Shown: piece by piece, positions 1,754-64,000 of the stretch
Layout: each line of letters opens with the position of its first letter
Numbering within the stretch: the stretch's first letter is position 1
Sequence record: PZ000613.1
DNA from: a phage
Direction: 5' to 3' (one strand)
DNA: 64,000 nt
The notes under the pieces: model-generated
What the model was told of the DNA's origin: nothing
Databases searched by the model: none
What the model saw: only the letters and a program-made list of their open reading frames with translations
Translations under genes and position numbers: made by a program

Positions 1754-4700
1754 TCATTTAGCAGCTAGCTGCTTTTCCAACTCTTCTACTTTAGCAGACA
1801 AAAGCTTGATAGCAGCAAGGGCATCTAGTAAAAGCGGGTTAGTGTCAAGAGTCATGACTCCACTTTTTTCTGCACTGTGAACATACTGAGGGTCCACCTG
1901 TTCTGCTTGTTGTGCAATAACCCCTCTACGTGGTGATTTCTTCTCATCGTTCTTATAAGTAAAGTTTTTAAACTCAAGAGATTTAATATTACTTAGAGCG
2001 ACATTTAGATCTAAATCATCTCCAATGTCCTTAACGTTTGCGTCAGAGGTTCCAGCATTCTGAAGAGTTGTCCACGGAAGATTGGATTTGAGTTCTTTTG
2101 GGTTGTTGTTCAAGGTGTTAGATCTGATATAAGCCGACCCACTCAGACTTACCCAAAATTGACAGATTCTATTTACAGCATAGGAAGTTTGTATACCCCC
2201 TCCATTAGCAGCTGCCCACGAAGAGTTACCATCCGAGTCGGTTATGAATTGGTTATAGTTAGAATCAGGTAATACTGTACCACCCTGAACCCCAACACCA
2301 TAATCATCTTTCACCAAAACACGACCCCTAGGAGTCTCTATATTACCAGCCTCAGTGAAATCAAAAGTAGTTCCTTTACTTGATGTTTTGTTGTAAACAC
2401 CAATTCTAGCAGAGTAAGAGCTTCCTATCGTCCCAACCATTCGGAACTCGGCTGAACCTTCAGATTCTACTCCTACTTTATACTCAGATACCACATTACC
2501 GCCGGTTACAGGGGTTCCATCAGAAGGGCGAGTGCCGTCGCTATTGATTACTGACCATGTTGTGTTGGCAGCAATGAATGCACCCTTAGCACGAATGACC
2601 CAAACACCTACAAAGTTATCAGGACGGACTCTTGAAGAACGACCATAAGCAGGGTTGTTTATTGATGCGTTAAGGGACAAGTTGCTTGAACGATTACCAC
2701 CTACATCACCTTCTGTGATTTTTGGTGGGTTCTTAGTTTCACCACTTGGTTGTAAGGCTGATTTACTAATAGACCCACCTACATACGCAAAAGCACCACC
2801 CACTGAAACAAAGTCAATAGTGCCTGTTATATTGGGGGCACCATTCTCAAAGACATCGCCGTTAGAGCCACTATTACCACCATCACCTCTGCCATAGAGT
2901 TCATTGATAGAGCCAGACTGAACACCGTTCCTATCAGGAACACGGAAAGTTGTTGTTCCATTACCTGTAGAGTATCTCCCCCTTTTGGATGGAGAGGCCA
3001 ACCAATCTGAATCAGATATCGGTGTTAATAACTGTGCATAAGCCCACAGGTCTGGATAATCAGCACGGTTGAGAAGCTGTCCGTCTGATGTTACATCATT
3101 TGGGTGAATAAAAGCCCGGCTATCCGCTAGTCTGAAATCACCAATGTTGAAATTGGAGATACCATTCATTGTAGGACCACCACCGCCACCACCTTGGTTT
3201 CTTAATTGACGTAAGGTAACGGCATCATAGTCACCAACAGCATCTGCTACAGTAACCGGCTGCTGGAAGGTAACCTTTTGAGTGAAAGTCTTAATATCAG
3301 AGTTCACACCATTAACATCGATACCAGCTGCGCCAACATCAACATTCGTGGGTTTATTATCCTCTGTATAAAATTTATAGTCCCCTCCCGGCTTAGAGAA
3401 GATCGGTGTTTCGGAAGAAGCTACTACAGTTCTAGCTAAGTGATCCCCAAATACAGAAGAATCAGAGCCGCTTCTTGATACCATGTTAACTTGAGTGTCA
3501 TTATCTTTTATTCTGCGTAAAGCTATAGTTTTGTTAAGGACTAAGTTTCCATCCATGATACCACCGGATTTAGCCAAAGCCCCTATGTTTGCAGCTGTTA
3601 TGTTAACGTTTCCTGTGATATCATTAGGGGAGATTCCGTTAACAGTAACAATATAAGGTTTCTGGTCTATTGGTTTACCATCATAAGAAGTATCTCCAGT
3701 TAAGCTAGGAGATCTAATAGCTTCACCACCAGTCCAATCAGGAAGACGGATGTTGATGTAGTTGGTAGAGTCTGCATCAGTCAGCCCATCAGCCAGTTTA
3801 CCCCAAGAATAATACTGCTTAGCGCCTGCTTGCCATTCTGTTTCAGACACAACTGGAAGTTGACCGCTAACCAAAGAAGCACCTAAATCACTAGCCAAAT
3901 CCTTGGACACCAAACGACCGTCAGCAGGTAAGATCCCCGGATAGGAAATAGGGCGAGTTGGGTCATAAGGGAACATTAACAGCTCACCAAGATATAAGGA
4001 TGGGTTACCTGTAGGGATTGTGATATCAATATTGCCACTAGAGTCAGGAATACGAGAGTTAACAGTAACAACCCGAGGTTCAGTTTTACTCAAATCAAGA
4101 ATCTTATCGGCAGCCACTTTGTAGAAAACATACTGAGTGTTTTCCCACACTAAAACAGTTTCTCCTGCCTGACGATTAACAGCATCTGCGTCCGCTTCAG
4201 CTTTAGAGCTGTATGTTTTAATAAAACCATCAACTTTGTTATCAACAACTTCTTTACTATAAGAAGCTACGTTCTCTACATTACTCAGCCCAACAGTGCT
4301 TTTGTCAAGAGTTAAAGAAACCTCACCACTCTCAGCAGGACCGCCGTTTACAGAGATAGAACGAACAGATGGGATAAGGTTTGCAATATTCTCTAAAGAT
4401 GTTTTGTGAACAGTGTTGTCATCTTTATCAACATAGAAACCTACATCACCAAGAACAGGAACGCCAGTTGGTGCGTTATCTAAATCTGTTACTGTACCAT
4501 CTTTACCCGGAGCACCTTGAGGGATACCCAAAGAGATAACACCAGTATTAGGATCAAAATGCCCAGAAGCTTCATTTCCCGGAGGAAGTGTGGTGACGTC
4601 TACTGACATACCTAACAGGATATCCAGTCGTTCCTGAACCTCAATCAACTTCTGGTCCATAAGAGCCAGAGCGTTCTGTGCGTCAGAGACTGCTGCGTTA

Positions 4701-4990: not shown

Positions 4991-5743
4991 TTATACACGA
5001 GAAGTACGAATACCATAAATATCAGGCAAGCTGCTCTGAAGTCGAGTCATGTTATTCGGAATTGCGATAGGTGAACCTGAGTACTCTTGTTTCTTATTCT
5101 GTTCTACCATTTCATCAAGGATAGCTTTTCCTAATGCTGACCATTTCTGAACTCCATTATCATCTTGAACAAACAAGCAAGCATGACGTAGAGTGAAATA
5201 CAGAAGAAGTTCTGGTGCAATAGTAAGAATAGCACTGGTATCTGTATCTTCGTGGAATTCCGGTGGGTCTGCATAATAACTAAGAATCACTGAGTTTTCT
5301 GCTGGGATCAAAGGGCTTCCATCATCAGGATAGTACGGAGTATCTGCTTCAATACTAGGGTAGAAAATGAAACGACTCCCGAAACGAGCAAAGTTAACAG
5401 GTTGGTTATTCCAGTGAGATGGGTTAATTGCTCCATGCTGTCTACGATAGCTAATCTCCTCAGGAGATGTTACTTGGAAGATTGCACCATCTTTGGCTCT
5501 CATCATCCATTGAGCTTCTAAGTAATCAGGAGGAATATAAGCCACCCCATCTTTGATATCTAAATAGACTTCTTTTTCCAGAGGAGGAATACGTAAGTTA
5601 CGATAAATCTCTTTCTCTGCAAAGTTAATAAAGTTTGGAATTTGATTAACAAATTCATCATCGTCCCTATCTGCCCAGAGGGCCACGGCCTTCTTTAGCC
5701 ACCCATAGGTATTGATGGGGTATTGAACATCTGGCATTGCCAT
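4991..5743 (-). CDS. hypothetical virion protein (250 aa)
   Basis: ORF with AAGGAGG RBS, located between capsid and fibre genes; no motif recognised. Confidence 0.4.
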   Translation of the reverse strand: MAMPDVQYPINTYGWLKKAVALWADRDDDEFVNQIPNFINFAEKEIYRNLRIPPLEKEVYLDIKDGVAYIPPDYLEAQWMMRAKDGAIFQVTSPEEISYRRQHGAINPSHWNNQPVNFARFGSRFIFYPSIEADTPYYPDDGSPLIPAENSVILSYYADPPEFHEDTDTSAILTIAPELLLYFTLRHACLFVQDDNGVQKWSALGKAILDEMVEQNKKQEYSGSPIAIPNNMTRLQSSLPDIYGIRTSRV

Positions 5744-5807
5744 AGGTTGTCCTCCTTGTTATATGTAGACAAAGAATATACATTACACACTGGCTTGTAT
5801 AGGTCTT

Positions 5808-5838
5808 AAAACGAAAAAACCCCGCCCGAAGGCAGGGT
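5808..5838 (-). terminator. rho-independent terminator after the capsid/Ig genes
   Basis: Minus-strand GC-rich hairpin (CCCTGCC-TTCG-GGCGGGG) followed by TTTTTTCGTTTT; sits directly downstream of the Ig-like ORF stop. Confidence 0.55.
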
Positions 5839-12760: not shown

Positions 12761-13234
12761 TTAACTCTCGTCCGCTTCCTCCCCCTTTTCAGCGTCCTCA
12801 GAGTTGTCTTCTTCTGGAGGCATAACGTCGATACCAAGTGCTCCAGTCAAGAAGTCCTTGATTTGTGCATTCAATGATTCTTCGTTGATTACATTCTCTT
12901 CCTCAATCTTAACTTCAACAGAGGCCGCCTTAGGATATACCAGATCTGCAACTTTTGATGCAGCCTTGAATCTAAGATCAGGTGGAATATTAGGATCTTC
13001 GTAAATTTGAATTAACACTTCATCAGGAGACAAATGACTTGCAGCAACACGGTCCAACATTAATTGTGTCAGTTTACCTCTACTACCTTTGGGTCGTCCG
13101 AATTTATTTCCCTTTTGAAACTTCCCATTGCTTGGGTTCATACCACGGCTTTCGAGTTCTTCCGTTACTCCGGGTAATCTTCCTGTAACCTCAGCTACCT
13201 GTGCAGGCGTGAGTTCTCCGTTTTCTCCAAACAT
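12761..13234 (-). CDS. putative terminase small subunit / DNA-binding protein (157 aa)
   Basis: Directly upstream of the large terminase; N-terminal GNKFGRPKGS motif common in small terminases, acidic C-terminal tail. Confidence 0.45.
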   Translation of the reverse strand: MFGENGELTPAQVAEVTGRLPGVTEELESRGMNPSNGKFQKGNKFGRPKGSRGKLTQLMLDRVAASHLSPDEVLIQIYEDPNIPPDLRFKAASKVADLVYPKAASVEVKIEEENVINEESLNAQIKDFLTGALGIDVMPPEEDNSEDAEKGEEADES

Positions 13235-13290
13235 TTTATACTCCTTCTACATTATCAACAACACAAAAAGCCTCCCAAGGGAGGCAAACA

Positions 13291-14347: not shown

Positions 14348-14635
14348 CTACCCCATCTCCCGTAAAGCTTTAGTTAGCATTAATACTAAAGAGACTGCTT
14401 CTACCCGTTCATCGTCTGGAAGAGAGGGATTTGATACTTTCTTTAAATTGTTTTCTATTGCAATCTCAATGAACTTTTTAGTGTCCAGATTCATACTCAT
14501 CCTTATATATAAGAGTTTAAAATTCTGATTTGACCGAATGGGGCTAGCCGCTCCGCGACGAATTCCTAAAAAGGGGGAGTCCTCATTTAAAAAAGGGTTA
14601 TTCAGGATGCCTTTAAGCCCATTCCCACGTTCCAA
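14348..14635 (-). CDS. hypothetical protein (95 aa)
   Basis: First minus-strand ORF after the divergent control region. Confidence 0.35.
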   Translation of the reverse strand: MERGNGLKGILNNPFLNEDSPFLGIRRGAASPIRSNQNFKLLYIRMSMNLDTKKFIEIAIENNLKKVSNPSLPDDERVEAVSLVLMLTKALREMG

Positions 14636-14640
14636 CCTTT

Positions 14641-15088
14641 CCCCGTGCCTACTCCCCGTAATTATTTCCCCGTGTATACCATCCTATTCATTAACTACCC
14701 GTTAAATTAGTTCCCCTTTAGAGAGTGAGAGAAAGGCCAGCACTGTACAGGCACTACCATAACAGGTCTAATAATACCCATAAGCAATAGCCCACATCCC
14801 CCATAGTTTGAATGTAAATAGTTTCAATAGTTGTTATTATGAGTGCAATAATGATATATGTATTAATTAAGTGGAAAGATTATGTTTGATGTTTATTATA
14901 TTCTTTTTATTCTTTTCTTTTTCAGCGTTCTTTTATTCTTTTTCTTTTAACGTTTGATGCTTGAGTAATGCTATTAATAGTTAACTAATTATTTAAGTGG
15001 TATATTATTACCGCACTATCTGGCTATGTTTCCCCGTGGTCTGTTCTGCGGTTGTGTGTTCCCCGTTTGTCCTGGTATGTTGGTCTGC
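14641..15088. repeat. array of seven (T)CCCCGT / CCCGT(A/T) repeats in the divergent control region
   Basis: Copies at about 14641, 14654, 14668, 14698, 15024, 15054, 15082; the first three are 13-14 bp apart, the last three 28-30 bp apart. Confidence 0.5.
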
Positions 15089-15212
15089 TACCCGTAGGAT
15101 TAGTGTTATAAAGTAACAATATCCAGTAAGCTGATGCTCTGAGTATGGGAAGTTTAGTAAATTAAATTTCTTTAGTTTTCAGTAAGATGCAAGAAAGTTA
15201 GAAAATAAATGG

Positions 15213-15240
15213 TTGACAGTCTTTTCCTTTATTATATAGT
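15213..15240 (+). promoter_or_regulatory. sigma70-type promoter TTGACA-16-TATAGT
   Basis: Consensus -35 hexamer, 16-nt spacer, TATAGT -10, AT-rich upstream; about 40 nt before the first plus-strand gene. Confidence 0.55.
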
Positions 15241-21363: not shown

Positions 21364-21561
21364 TCACTAGTGCCAGATTTGACAAACTAAATTCCTTTAT
21401 AAACCAACCACTTAGTAAATTTATTGAAAAAGATGGTAGTATTCTGGGACTATGGGTAATGCTCTGTATATAGACCCTTTGAAAATTTCTTAGAAAATAA
21501 GTTTACTAAATATAACTTACTTAAATAATATTACTTTTAATCTCTGATAAAGGTGAATAAT

Positions 21562-21858
21562 ATGACTTTAGAAGTATATAAATTCCTTTTTGTAAGCTGT
21601 TTAACTATCAGCGTTATAGGGTTTATTGTTCTCAGAAACAAAGCAGCAAGCTGGGAGAGAATGTATAAATCTCTAGTCCGAGTGGATGAGATGTATAATG
21701 AGAAAGTTAAAGTAACACTCAACGATCTTATTATGCAAGTTGAAGACAGAAACAAACGTCTTCAGAACCTCAACCACGAGGTGTTACGCCTTGCTCGTGC
21801 TAATGAAGACTTGCGAGTGGCTATTGCTAAGCAGCAGGAGATTAACAGTGAAAGTTAA
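21562..21858 (+). CDS. membrane-anchored coiled-coil protein (99 aa)
   Basis: RBS AAAGGTGA; N-terminal transmembrane helix followed by charged helical region. Confidence 0.45.
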   Translation: MTLEVYKFLFVSCLTISVIGFIVLRNKAASWERMYKSLVRVDEMYNEKVKVTLNDLIMQVEDRNKRLQNLNHEVLRLARANEDLRVAIAKQQEINSES

Positions 21859-25956: not shown

Positions 25957-26098
25957 TGACTGAAGAATTTTTAAAGTGGTTTGGTGATACCTTCAAAGAG
26001 TATCTATTCTCTCCAGAAGACTTTGAAGAACTGAAAACCTACACTTGGTTGGCTTGGAGAGATAGCCGACGAAAGTTGAACAAGTAAGAGACGATTAA

Positions 26099-49267: not shown

Positions 49268-49323
49268 ATAGTAACTTATAATGTATACTCCTTAGTGTAC
49301 ACTGATATATTAAGGAGTTCTAA

Positions 49324-49641
49324 ATGGCAGACCATGTAGGAAAGAGAGATTATGCACAAGAAAGACGTACCGCAATTGCCCGTGGTGAAACAGGCGTTGG
49401 GAGCAAGAGCGGAGATGCTCAGCGCCACCGTGCACGTCGCATCGTTGAAAAGCGCGATGGAAAAGCTGCTATCAGAGGTAAGGACGTTGGACACAAACGA
49501 GCTGTCAAGTCTGGAGGCTCTAATGCGTCAAGCAACTTACGTGTTGAATCAGTCAGCTCAAACCGTTCAAACGGCGGCAAAAGTGGTGATCGAGCTGGAA
49601 AAGCAAACGGAGCTAGGAAGGGGGCGTTGAGTGGTTCTTGA
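49324..49641 (+). CDS. hypothetical basic Gly/Arg/Lys-rich protein (105 aa)
   Basis: Strong RBS AAGGAG 8 nt upstream of the ATG; an overlapping alternative-frame ORF (49352-49630) also exists. Confidence 0.4.
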   Translation: MADHVGKRDYAQERRTAIARGETGVGSKSGDAQRHRARRIVEKRDGKAAIRGKDVGHKRAVKSGGSNASSNLRVESVSSNRSNGGKSGDRAGKANGARKGALSGS

Positions 49642-51640: not shown

Positions 51641-53485
51641 GTGAGCAACCCGGACGCTCTTCCATTTTTGACAGAGATGACTGTCGCTGATATAATCTCT
51701 AAGCAAGCAAAGCACGGAGTGAGTTTCAACCGAAGAAATGCTCGGTGGTATGTTCACCTCCTTAAAGAGATTATTGTTAATATTGACAGAGAGTTGATTC
51801 CTCTCTTACCTAAGATGAGATTAGACGGCTCTACTTATATGAAGCCGTTTAAGAAGTCTGGAGCTTTACAGAAGTGGCCTCAAGCCTATTGTGATAGGGT
51901 TGGGCTGAAGAGAGAAGATATTGGTGGAGCTTTCACCTGTGTCGAATACGTAGACTTTGACCCATCGAAAGATGCACGAGTTAAAGAAGCTCTTATGGAT
52001 GAGGGCTTTCTTCCTCCAGAGTTTAACGTATCTAAGAAGCCTTGGAATACTTTCGAAATTAAGAAAGATATGAGAAAGTATGGAACATATCAAGCATGGT
52101 ATACTGCTTGGATGCGAGGCAATGCTAAGCAGAAGCAGACAGCCGAGATGGTTGACGCTGATATTAAGAAGTTCTTAGAAAAGCATTTCAGGTTTAAGAC
52201 TAAGAACTATATGAAGGCTTACGTATTTGGTTTAGGATTAAACCCTAATCGCCGTAACCCTGTAACGTTTGATGAGATTAAGAAAGCACTAGCCACATCA
52301 AACAAGTGGCCTACAGCTCCTACAAACCTCGAGGAGACTCTTGAAGAAGGGTTAGGGGGTGAGCTAGGGAGTGTTGGAAGTTTGCTTAAGAGACGCGTTG
52401 TAGCGGCTCACAGGCTAGGTCTTATCAGTGGACTCATAGCAAAGGAACGCGAAGATGGTAAACTTTCGGCAGAAGCTAACAGCTGCGCTACGCCAACTTT
52501 TCGATTCAAACATCGTATCGTGGTTAATATTCCCTCCCGTGGTTTGTTTGGTCACGAGTGTCGCAGTTTGTTTGAGTCTGACTATAACTCAGACAGTGAT
52601 CACTCTCGTCCTTTCGTTATTACTAACGTTGTTCCTGATGGTTGTTATATACGAAAAGGTACTAACGTAATTTATGAGAAAGGTAAGCCGGGGAAGAAAG
52701 ATAAACCTATAGGTGCTTACAAATATTACATACCCGCTGGTAAAGAAGTATTCTTAGGGTATGATGGTTCTGGACTTGAACTTCGTATGCTCGCTCACTA
52801 CCTCATTAAAGAGTGTAGAGATATGCTTGCTGAGGCAATTGAAGAGAACAATCCAGCTAAGAAAGCTCTGGCAGAACGTGGTTTAGCTTCTGCTATTATG
52901 TATCGTGATATCCTTCTTGAAGGTGATATCCACTCCCACAACCAGAAACTTGCTGGCCTTCCTACTCGTGACAACGCTAAAACGTTTATCTATGCATTCA
53001 ACTATGGTGCTGGCGACGCTAAGCTTGGCTCAATTGTAGGTGGTGGGGCTGACGAAGGTTCAGTGATGCGAGCACGTTTCTTAGCAGAGAACCCATGTAT
53101 TGCAATCCTCATTGATCGTATGACAGAGAAAGCTGCTCAGGGATACTTGATTGGTGTTGATGGTCGTAAGATTACAATGAGAAGAGATGCCACTGGTAAA
53201 GTTATGGTTCATAAAGCCCTTAACACACTTCTGCAATGTGCTGGTGCTGTTGTTATGAAATACGCTATGATGTTCCTTAACAAGTGGATTGAGAAGGATG
53301 GGGTTCGTTGTGCTAAGGTAATTGATATGCACGATGAGGGCCAATTCTCAGTGAACCGTAATGATGTACAGAAACTCAAAGAACACACTGAGCTTTGTGT
53401 TAAGAAAGCTGGTGAGTACTTGAACATGGAATGTCCTCTGGCTTCTGATTGTCAGATTGGATTAAATTGGATGCATACGCACTAA
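51641..53485 (+). CDS. family A DNA polymerase, polymerase domain only (GTG start, 614 aa)
   Basis: Motif A DGSGLELRMLAHY, motif B RDNAKTFIYAFNYGAG, motif C IDMHDEGQF; no exonuclease motifs in this ORF. Confidence 0.85.
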   Translation: MSNPDALPFLTEMTVADIISKQAKHGVSFNRRNARWYVHLLKEIIVNIDRELIPLLPKMRLDGSTYMKPFKKSGALQKWPQAYCDRVGLKREDIGGAFTCVEYVDFDPSKDARVKEALMDEGFLPPEFNVSKKPWNTFEIKKDMRKYGTYQAWYTAWMRGNAKQKQTAEMVDADIKKFLEKHFRFKTKNYMKAYVFGLGLNPNRRNPVTFDEIKKALATSNKWPTAPTNLEETLEEGLGGELGSVGSLLKRRVVAAHRLGLISGLIAKEREDGKLSAEANSCATPTFRFKHRIVVNIPSRGLFGHECRSLFESDYNSDSDHSRPFVITNVVPDGCYIRKGTNVIYEKGKPGKKDKPIGAYKYYIPAGKEVFLGYDGSGLELRMLAHYLIKECRDMLAEAIEENNPAKKALAERGLASAIMYRDILLEGDIHSHNQKLAGLPTRDNAKTFIYAFNYGAGDAKLGSIVGGGADEGSVMRARFLAENPCIAILIDRMTEKAAQGYLIGVDGRKITMRRDATGKVMVHKALNTLLQCAGAVVMKYAMMFLNKWIEKDGVRCAKVIDMHDEGQFSVNRNDVQKLKEHTELCVKKAGEYLNMECPLASDCQIGLNWMHTH

Positions 53486-54969: not shown

Positions 54970-55185
54970 ATGGAATACATTGATAAATACTCAAGTGAAG
55001 ATTCAACAAACGCTGAAGTTTTATTTATACTAAAAACAGACTGTCTTGAACATGGTCAACTTATCAATTTCATTGAGTTGGCAAAACTTAAAGAAGAGAT
55101 AGATCAACTGTATAGCGATGAGCAGTCTCGTTTGTTGTCACTGTCCCTTCTCGGAGATCTTACCTGTGATGGATGTACTATCTAA
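54970..55185 (+). CDS. hypothetical protein (71 aa)
   Basis: RBS AGGAG. Confidence 0.4.
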   Translation: MEYIDKYSSEDSTNAEVLFILKTDCLEHGQLINFIELAKLKEEIDQLYSDEQSRLLSLSLLGDLTCDGCTI

Positions 55186-55345
55186 CTCTGAGAAAAAGAA
55201 GATCTCAGTATTTAAAGAACCTGTAGTTTATAAAGACTCTATCAGAGATCAATATAATGAGATGTTAAAGAAACAAGCTGATTCTAATCTTCGTTATCAG
55301 AGGATATTAGAACAAACTAACTTTAAAGGTTTACTTGAATGGTAA
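55169..55345 (+). CDS. hypothetical small protein (58 aa; start uncertain)
   Basis: ORF overlapping the previous gene end. Confidence 0.3.
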   Translation: MDVLSNSEKKKISVFKEPVVYKDSIRDQYNEMLKKQADSNLRYQRILEQTNFKGLLEW

Positions 55346-55761
55346 CTTATATCCTTTACTTTTTAGCTTTCTTAGGAATAATCTTTTTATCTATTATTCT
55401 TGAATTTGGTTTAAGTAAGTTAGTTAATTATTTAGGTAATAAGTAATTAATATTCTTTTAAATAGAGAATCAAAGTCCCTAGGAGTCCCTACAACCTAAA
55501 TCAAGGATTCCTTAATTCTCTATTTTTATCTCGCAGGTGGCTCCTGCCCTTCGGTACTTGCAAGGGATTCTGTGAATTGCCCAATATACAAGCCTGCAAT
55601 AACTTTATCAGCTATACAATATATACATTACTAGTGTGTTATATCTACTACCAAAGATACTTATATTATATAGTACTCTTATCGGTATAAGCGTAATGTA
55701 TACTATACATAACCGCTCAAAGAGAGCAACAATCTTTCAAATTAAATAAGGAAATTAAAAT

Positions 55762-56508
55762 ATGTCTATGATTCCAACTATCGCAACTGCTTCCCGTAAA
55801 TCCAACTACGATGTAATCCCTGATGGTGAATACGAAGCACGTATCGTTCGTGTGGTAGGTTTAGGTGTTCACAATCGTGACCCTTGGATTGACCCGAAGA
55901 CCAAAGCAGTAACTCCTAAGAATCCGGCTTTCCGTATGGATTTGGCTTTCGAGCTGATTGGTGTTGATGCTACTGGTAAAGATTCCGATGGTAAGGCATT
56001 AGAACCACGTCCTGCTTGCCAGTTCAAGAGCTATGATGTAAACCCACGAGCTAAGAACTCTGGTATTCTTGATCTTTGCAAGATGATTGACCCAAGTATT
56101 CAAGCACTGAAAGGTGATCTGTCTTGGTTCAAGGATGTTCTGTTAGGCCAGCCTGTTAACATTCTGGTTAACTCTTACACTAACAAAGCTGGTGAAGTTA
56201 AAAACTCCATCAAAACCATTTCTCCAATCCCAACCAAATATCGTGCAGCAGTTGGTGAAGCTCGTAGTCCTCTGGTATTCTTCGAACCGTATGCTGAAAC
56301 CGATGAGAACGTAGCATCCTATCAACTGATGTTCCCGTTCCAGCGCAACCTGCTTACTCAAGCTAATGACGCTAAGAACATGCCTCTGGCTGGTCGTGAA
56401 ATTACTCGTGCTTCTGAAACAGAGCAGAAAGAAGCTACTCCTTCAATCCCTACGATTGATAAAGAGCCTGCTTCTACTTACGAAGACGACAACGATAGCC
56501 CATTCTAA
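55762..56508 (+). CDS. putative single-stranded DNA-binding protein (T7 gp2.5-like, 248 aa)
   Basis: Acidic C-terminal tail ending in Phe (YEDDNDSPF); flanked by a promoter-rich leader and a strong terminator. Confidence 0.5.
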   Translation: MSMIPTIATASRKSNYDVIPDGEYEARIVRVVGLGVHNRDPWIDPKTKAVTPKNPAFRMDLAFELIGVDATGKDSDGKALEPRPACQFKSYDVNPRAKNSGILDLCKMIDPSIQALKGDLSWFKDVLLGQPVNILVNSYTNKAGEVKNSIKTISPIPTKYRAAVGEARSPLVFFEPYAETDENVASYQLMFPFQRNLLTQANDAKNMPLAGREITRASETEQKEATPSIPTIDKEPASTYEDDNDSPF

Positions 56509-56800: not shown

Positions 56801-58084
<1,284 letters not shown>

Positions 58085-63600: not shown

Positions 63601-64000
63601 CTTCTGTAGTTCAGCAGCTTTCTCTACAAAGTTATTAAAGTCTTCACCATCACGAGCTTTGAATCGATTTGCTTCATTGTAGAAAGTCTTGTAAGCATCA
63701 ATGAAATCACGGTCAGCTTGTGTACGATTCTTAATATCAATCGGACTACCAGTAAAATCACCAGAAGCTCGGAGAGAAGTTAATTCACGATCTAGGTTAT
63801 CTAGAACATCTGTAAGAGCTTTCGTGTTATCTTTGGTGTAGTCAGCCATTGCATCCTTCATAGCAACAGCCTGCTTCTGGTTGTGCTCGTTGTCAGCGAA
63901 TGCTTTACCGCGAGTCTTAGCAGGAGAAGCTAAAGGATTGAGGCCCGGAATGTTGGAATGTTCTTTCTGAACGGAAGCAGCTTTCTCAGCACGAGCTTGG
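60604..64000 (-). CDS. giant charged coiled-coil protein, partial (over 1130 aa; N-terminus beyond window end); candidate internal virion / ejection or tape-measure-like protein
   Basis: The minus-strand frame stays open upstream of the annotated ATG (63861) to the window edge, so the 1085-aa track ORF is truncated; Ala/Glu/Lys/Arg-rich heptad-like sequence. Confidence 0.45.
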   Translation of the reverse strand, partial: QARAEKAASVQKEHSNIPGLNPLASPAKTRGKAFADNEHNQKQAVAMKDAMADYTKDNTKALTDVLDNLDRELTSLRASGDFTGSPIDIKNRTQADRDFIDAYKTFYNEANRFKARDGEDFNNFVEKAAELQKMADNVSPEMKKAIGGLKKLKGMPEGFNPIQDAYTLNNTAKFMSNQDRGWTSLTDDGFREASSPSLVMNTLGAAKYALNRFSSQRARSQRVKQQEANSEAIRSLARGDLEVARAKSTAAEARAKMEEEPVVDDIKFKTQNDVETEPVREPSSSTVTEENPPSSAPQETPLTARDLVAQRRAIRQAEQRRAEEEALAAQEAPVEQAPQAEPLPARNPLEERRAMEQQRAQEEAAQAPEPTVEEPTVKAEPLPARAPKAPKEAVQDVKPASGVERLAAMSSAARQATKDRAERFARSLYSKAAKAKATAENFLAYKGDPKELMRRIRQEDNAINTERHEEMARNQLASQQGIATAKNNTVRTNFAEWVKERGLPEDIATKALRAEEKGLGGNVTNLDSLKRRAERLYQKQREDEFDRLYQQALEENKAFDNKNAPKLVDQKKELQSEIDTLIDSEPLRPAQKDAMRKLMNDFVDGKFKSSEKAGREEALEVGQMKDIWDGFINTYNREVNAFNKANKNSQYEAAAKHLQAREERLATLRKKAQARSDAKAAVENERKTLEAIAAQKSEIEKMMEGLPKPVREAQESRTLKQLAAHHDKNSPVPPEKFRSYIERIHNAESDYLDRQRRLTDAEEDARQAKWNKMYEQAEEMNRKFDVDKRVKRSEELKAAQERENDLMAVQRQRDDIHRRLMRTMEDKGISREDAEAFAGSYMDNRYALLEKPMTPTEHQNARSRIEADVEKFAKKYESMTPIEKEIAKVTGDTEGKLDNLDADTRKAIEEAQKVDSDIKKLQEEEMEMEKIRSALPDDERSQASSDILESIKQQEEAFADKAEKAFLNGKSLDELASVAEVLDRVHGADKAGNNRRFVRALQTAAENKKKYGDNPVAWFSADDYSAIAKLGASSAGGNKSRALEKIFGSTAEQAKSKLLGRDDVAKMRRVIEENPDIKIPSYKTTNRTEYLQFLEKFNDEGKPKIKRGSLSEKLERSKRQSRLRVRVRPKE

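Follow-up and report, generated by a model that had tools for sequence, protein, structure and literature searches.

The 11-nt sequence at 49279-49289 of phage record PZ000613.1 lies shortly upstream of the gene starting at 49324 and recurs before several other genes of the 64,000-nt stretch analyzed here (the window). The preliminary description took it for the recognition motif of a sigma-like protein encoded in the same window or, alternatively, for an unusual extended -10 element of the host enzyme. The question is which RNA polymerase holoenzyme, if any, the repeat serves. On the basis of sequence comparison with phages of known transcription, we consider the TAATGTATA elements to be very probably (approximately 95%) -10-like recognition elements of phiEco32-like middle and late promoters. 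Such promoters have been described for phiEco32, and published work already extends the system to close relatives. The main finding is a confirmation of the phiEco32 transcription program that leaves knowledge of phage transcription unchanged; the gain lies in annotation, with five promoters, operon boundaries, and temporal classes assignable in the window.

The phage, its sigma factor and its co-activator

The window derives from a Kuravirus, a phiEco32/SU10-like podophage of E. coli. Ninety-nine phage records of the phiEco32/SU10 group matched it at 80-99% identity, and the alignment with phiEco32 (NC_010324) extended over 56.7 kb at about 93% identity, in reverse orientation and running across the ends of that record. 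At 14497-15240, the window joins the two ends of the phiEco32 record (window 14497-14737 matches phiEco32 242-2, and window 14546-15240 matches phiEco32 77554-76861); it thus has one copy of the terminal repeat, and the order of its source assembly is a permutation of that of phiEco32.

The sigma factor gene (57061-57705, plus strand) encodes an orthologue of phiEco32 gp36 with 100% amino acid identity (214/214), and its product is also 100% identical to PDB chain 9m7y_F, in which the N-terminal domain is sigma2-like and the C-terminal domain is sigma4-like (PMC12276001). The Pfam Sigma70_r2 model scored 18.3 bits on this protein, below the 24-bit cut-off, and no Pfam match to region 4 was found in it. 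The orthologue of gp79 (37894-38142, plus strand) is identical to the phiEco32 protein at 82 of 82 residues; gp79 is an inhibitor of sigma70 transcription and a co-activator of gp36 transcription (PMC12276001). All nucleotide differences from phiEco32 in these genes (23 in the sigma gene and 7 in the gp79 gene) are synonymous, a sign that purifying selection on the two transcription proteins is very strong.

Motif frequency and the probable promoters of the window

Site presence, position, enrichment, and conservation were computed here, as was the identity of the sigma factor and its co-activator. The exact motif TAATGTATAYT occurred three times in the window (5775-5785 on the minus strand; 49279-49289 and 55694-55704 on the plus strand), against 0.08 matches expected, and none of 100 dinucleotide-preserving shuffles of the window reached three. 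The motif WAATGTAKA was found 8 times (3.6 expected). Shorter or looser versions behaved differently in the same window: TGTATA showed no enrichment (31 seen, 36.6 expected), AATGTA was near chance (48 seen, 44.5 expected), and the 8-mer and 9-mer with one mismatch allowed gave chance-level counts. The enrichment is confined to the near-exact element; loose versions, found at chance frequency, are therefore unusable for calling sites.

According to the preliminary description, a motif equally common within genes and in upstream regions would speak against the promoter reading. This outcome was not seen: all exact TAATGTATA copies (4/4) were intergenic on a crude ORF map with a non-coding share of 12%. 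Sites with an intact AATGTA (9-mer, at most one mismatch) were intergenic in 7 of 9 cases on that map (binomial P ~1e-5, computed before the site at 21659 proved genic); the corrected count is 6 of 9 near-consensus sites. The site concerned, GAATGTATA, seemed intergenic on the crude map but lies within the orthologue of phiEco32 gene 116 (21562-21858) and was rejected. Two further matches, TAATGTAGA at 4275 (minus strand) and AAATGTAGA at 57926, fall inside genes and were taken as chance occurrences.

For phiEco32, three papers describe six promoters of the gp36 holoenzyme with a single consensus, tAATGTAtA, and starts 6-8 bp downstream (PMC8948821), located before genes 6, 13, 26, 40, 58, and 68 (PMC4331800) and divided into three middle and three late promoters (PMC4281155). 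For these promoters, PMC8948821 and PMC4331800 refer to Pavlova et al. 2012 (J Mol Biol 416:389); the results of that study enter here second-hand, through four later papers. The phiEco32 start sites were reportedly mapped by primer extension, and the published in vitro transcription had the templates used by the gp36 holoenzyme and not by the sigma70 holoenzyme. The motif has already been reported in SU10, with a sigma factor 100% identical to gp36 (PMC4281155), and is also known in other phages of the phiEco32 subgroup (PMC4281155, PMC8948821).

For each of the six phiEco32 genes and its orthologue in the window, we extracted the preceding 90 nt and compared them. Synteny and sequence placed five of the six published promoters (all but P26) before orthologous genes, and the five co-oriented intergenic sites carry a tAATGTAtA-type element with an AATGTA core. 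The orthologue of gene 26 has no stop codon and is cut by the window end at 64000; P26 therefore lies approximately 1 kb outside the window. The 11-mer copies of the preliminary description were all recovered at their positions, including AAATGTATATA at 44298-44308, and the start-codon distances it gives, like the terminator it places shortly before the 5775-5785 copy, agree with the sequence. Its four strong sites stand, but the list missed P6 (13246-13254) and a minus-strand copy at 55622-55630.

Both late promoters of the window are on the minus strand. The P13 orthologue, TAATGTATA at 5777-5785, is 34 nt before the start codon of a virion protein gene (4991-5743), with a predicted +1 at approximately 5770. 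Its upstream region (93 nt) is identical to that of phiEco32, its element is invariant in five relatives, and an intrinsic terminator with a 10-pair stem followed by a T run (5840-5817, minus strand) lies directly upstream. The P6 orthologue, TAATGTAGA at 13246-13254, is 12 nt before the orthologue of gene 6 (12761-13234), with a predicted +1 at approximately 13239, and is likewise directly preceded by an intrinsic terminator (13285-13270, minus strand). Its upstream region shows two differences from phiEco32; four of five relatives have the element, as GATAATGTAGAAGG, and one contig has no exact P6. With only 12 nt between the element and the annotated ATG, the predicted P6 start falls downstream of an AGGAG Shine-Dalgarno sequence. 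A promoter so close to the start codon would give the gene 6 orthologue an almost leaderless transcript that lacks the Shine-Dalgarno sequence, which is odd and has no bearing on recognition.

The middle promoters are on the plus strand. The P68 orthologue (44274-44306) consists of a -35 box, TTGGTAGTAGATAT (44274-44287), an 11-nt spacer, and AAATGTATA (44298-44306), with a predicted +1 at 44313; its upstream region has one difference from phiEco32, and the promoter is conserved in seven relatives. The P58 orthologue, which is the element in question here (TAATGTATA, 49279-49287), is 37 nt before the 49324 start, with a predicted +1 at 49294, and is identical to phiEco32 from the element downstream. 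The P40 orthologue (TAATGTATA, 55694-55702) is 60 nt before the 55762 start, with a predicted +1 at 55709; its upstream region is identical to that of phiEco32, and its element is invariant in the relatives aligned. The sigma gene falls in the block of genes downstream of P40.

In P68 numbering, the predicted +1 was a purine at every site, and A was found at -34 in all six window sites, whereas G was found at -37 only in P6, P68, and an antisense site described below. Apart from A-34, the -35 region was not obviously common to all sites. P13 (window 5800-5808, minus strand) and P26 (phiEco32 25991-25999) have TAAGACCTA in common, located exactly 15 nt upstream of AATGTA, a possible -35 region of the late class that would differ from the TTGGTAGTAG box present in P68 and at the antisense site.

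A weaker copy near 21465 had also been counted as a member of the class, and this assignment was not borne out. The composite around it (21434-21472, plus strand, early region) consists of TGGTAGTA, 16 nt, AATGCT, and then TGTATATAG / CTGTATATAGACC, with TGTATATA at 21465-21472. In the register originally chosen, TGTATATAG agrees with P68 and P26, but positions -14/-13 are TC; the AA is absent and the sequence does not fit the consensus. With the register shifted 4 nt upstream, the site has all six bases that gp36 reportedly contacts, at P68 spacing, but CT at -10/-9. Six genomes keep both blocks, two of them with a 1-nt indel in between; because the whole spacer is 88% conserved, this block conservation says little. 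The composite could be a weak promoter, a decoy, or an unrelated sequence.

Conservation, recognition and rival readings

The conservation of the elements was followed in IMG/VR contigs (phiEco32, NJ01, ECBP2, and two others) and in GenBank records of two further genera (SU7, IME267, and EK010, Suseptimavirus; EP335, Nieuwekanaalvirus). We observed that the elements are kept in place in Kuravirus, Suseptimavirus, and Nieuwekanaalvirus, with adjoining spacers that diverge or carry indels; P58 was absent at the expected place in SU7. The sigma factors of these relatives share 80-83% identity with gp36, and every one of the ten DNA-contact residues is retained. In three more distant metagenomic contigs, the sigma factor is 54% identical to gp36 and carries H80N and R84Q, and AATGTA was absent at these promoter places. 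One of them (IMG/VR contig 3300013307_000002) has TAATGAA upstream of three late genes, at approximately 460, 1770, and 8960. The sample is small, and the joint occurrence of TAATGAA and an altered sigma factor may reflect co-variation, as fits a motif that tracks its sigma.

These comparisons bear on whether the repeats have been kept through close kinship only, or as an operator for some other regulator, and have no role as promoters. Many relatives are >90% identical overall, which makes raw conservation weak evidence, and P40 sits in an imperfect palindrome, TAATGTATACTATACATAA. The element is invariant, however, amid a diverged or indel-bearing spacer in ECBP2, in SU7, and in the L004 contig (with an insertion of ~120 nt), and it occurs at six non-homologous places in the genome, always with the correct orientation and distance to genes. 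The palindromic partner of P40, TTATGTATA (55704-55712, minus strand), was rejected, this right arm not being conserved in ECBP2 or SU7. Start sites have, moreover, been mapped in phiEco32. We regard this explanation as highly improbable.

Equally hard to sustain is the reading of the element as an unusual extended -10 of the host sigma70 holoenzyme rather than a target of the phage sigma. The element is TATA-rich, and sigma70-like pairs matching at 9 of 12 positions overlap P6 (TTGGGA-16-GATAAT) and the antisense site (TAGATA-18-TATATT). Such 9-of-12 matches were, however, at or below chance frequency in the scans, and the scan of the window for TTGACA/TATAAT-like pairs 16-18 bp apart found none over P13, P40, P58, or P68. 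The conserved core AATGTA is no variant of TATAAT, dependence on the gp36 holoenzyme has been published, and gp79 inhibits sigma70 transcription. The host alternative of the preliminary description is thus not supported, since no sigma70-like pair covers these four promoters and the literature assigns them to the gp36 holoenzyme. Host use and functionless conservation are both very unlikely and run counter to the published biochemistry. The preferred reading of the preliminary description, the element as the recognition motif of the phage sigma, is supported by the identity of this sigma to gp36, by the sites being the orthologues of P13, P40, P58, and P68, and by the published biochemistry.

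Promoter activity, start sites, and contacts were taken from the literature, and we infer that the same holds in the phage of PZ000613.1. A 2025 cryo-EM structure shows an open complex of core polymerase with gp36, gp79, and P68, in which AATGTA occupies -14 to -9 (PMC12276001). Within gp36, A-14, A-13, and T-12 are read by N95, S91, and S94, and G-11 by E79 and H80; W90 and Y83 make stacking contacts at the fork junction, and the C-terminal domain recognizes G-37 and A-34 through R187 and Y186 (PMC12276001). In the same work, gp79 displaced sigma70 region 4, stabilized the C-terminal domain of gp36, and increased the output of P26 and P68 three- to four-fold (PMC12276001).

By extension to the phage analyzed here, the host sigma70 holoenzyme would transcribe the early genes and those of gp36 and gp79 early in infection, after which gp36 would bind the E. 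coli core RNA polymerase. With its N-terminal domain on the clamp helices, gp36 would read A-14, A-13, and T-12 in duplex DNA; W90 and Y83 would stack at the fork junction, G-11 would be read, and the DNA would open from -11 to +2, so that transcription would start 6-8 bp downstream of the 9-mer. The C-terminal domain would touch the -35 region (G-37 and A-34 in P68). By displacing sigma70 region 4, gp79 would shut off host and early transcription and, by clamping the C-terminal domain of gp36, would stimulate the middle and late promoters. P68, P58, and P40 would then serve the plus-strand middle genes (replication and nucleotide metabolism), and P6 and P13 would serve the minus-strand late packaging and virion genes.

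Compared with the gp36 promoters of phiEco32, the window shows the same element, the same genomic positions, identical or nearly identical flanks, and identical gp36 and gp79. Nothing of substance differs: the window comes from another isolate (~93% nucleotide identity), P26 is outside it, and the antisense copy is unlisted. The late promoters of T4 also have a single short -10-like element, TATAAATA, which is read by gp55, a small divergent phage sigma; gp55 has no region 4 and requires gp33 together with the sliding clamp. T4 middle promoters rely on sigma appropriation by AsiA/MotA. Unlike gp55, gp36 has a sigma4-like C-terminal domain at the -35 region, stabilized by gp79, and the sequences are unrelated. 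The pair gp79-gp36 has been likened to AsiA-MotA, as a repressor/co-activator with a specificity factor (PMC12276001). The gp47 late promoters of Salmonella phage 7-11 are alike in that a phage sigma steers the host core RNA polymerase from similar genome positions (PMC8948821), but they have a different, bipartite motif, GTAAtg-(16)-aCTA. The gp47 sigma, with only ~15% identity, is considered an independent acquisition, and phage 7-11 has neither a gp79 homologue nor a middle class.

As a separate observation, the DNA polymerase gene contains, within its opening 60 nt (51668-51696), a sequence that agrees perfectly with the sigma70 consensus and includes an extended -10 (TTGACA, 17 nt, TGaTATAAT). 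The sequence is unchanged in phiEco32, NJ01, and one metagenomic contig, and inexact in ECBP2, SU7, and EP335.

An antisense candidate upstream of P40

The only part of the system that may be new is the minus-strand copy upstream of P40, where an exact GTAATGTATA occupies 55622-55631, at a distance of 61 nt. The candidate promoter (55615-55654, minus strand; about 80 bp upstream of P40) resembles P68 in both parts: TTGGTAGTAGATAT (55654-55641) is followed by an 11-nt spacer and by TAATGTATA (55630-55622), with a predicted +1 at 55615, and TTGGTAGTAGATAT plus 11 nt reproduces the -39 to -26 block of P68 and its spacing. Its direction is away from gene 40, so that it would read into the 315-nt spacer that separates genes 41 and 40. 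The composite TGGTAGTAGAT-N13-AATGTATA was found twice in the window, with none expected; in the IMG/VR collection, it was found only in five kuravirus-like contigs, twice in four of the five. Across 11 genomes from three genera, TAATGTATATA and the -35 box were invariant or nearly so, and the spacer varied in sequence and not in length. Promoters are expected to show this pattern, with a spacer free in sequence and fixed in length. Eighty-six phage records contain the 70-nt antisense region, almost always without annotation.

At its 5' end, the predicted transcript from 55615 has a 17-nt hairpin, in which pairing across the 11 genomes reaches 97%. One of its pairs appears as C-G, U-A, or A-U, and another appears as G-C or G-U. 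The G-U form pairs only in RNA of the minus strand, which constitutes modest comparative evidence for a minus-strand hairpin RNA. Rfam gave no match in 55000-55900, and no credible minus-strand ORFs were found downstream of the antisense site.

The candidate is outside the six phiEco32 promoters listed in the later papers. A full-text literature search, the reach of which did not extend to Pavlova et al. 2012, returned nothing relevant on antisense transcription in phiEco32. We tentatively propose, at a little short of even odds, that phiEco32-like phages have a seventh, antisense gp36 promoter that fires at middle or late times into the spacer of genes 41 and 40, which is rich in AT and in hairpins, and whose product is an antisense or non-coding RNA. 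This product could counteract read-through coming from upstream genes or, by analogy with the origin promoters of T7, could prime or activate DNA replication. If active, the promoter would add a non-coding/antisense, or possibly origin-activating, transcript to a model system that has a cryo-EM structure; this structure and the existing in vitro assays make the test cheap.

On the minus strand downstream of the antisense site, a hairpin (55460-55525) is followed by an AT-rich stretch. In plus-strand order, the region 55346-55560 comprises the AT-rich stretch and then this hairpin, which is large and perfectly conserved, holds the direct repeat AGTCCCTA twice and the palindrome AAGGATTCCTT, and is followed by a plus-strand T run. 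The region could terminate transcription ahead of P40, bind protein, or act as an origin.
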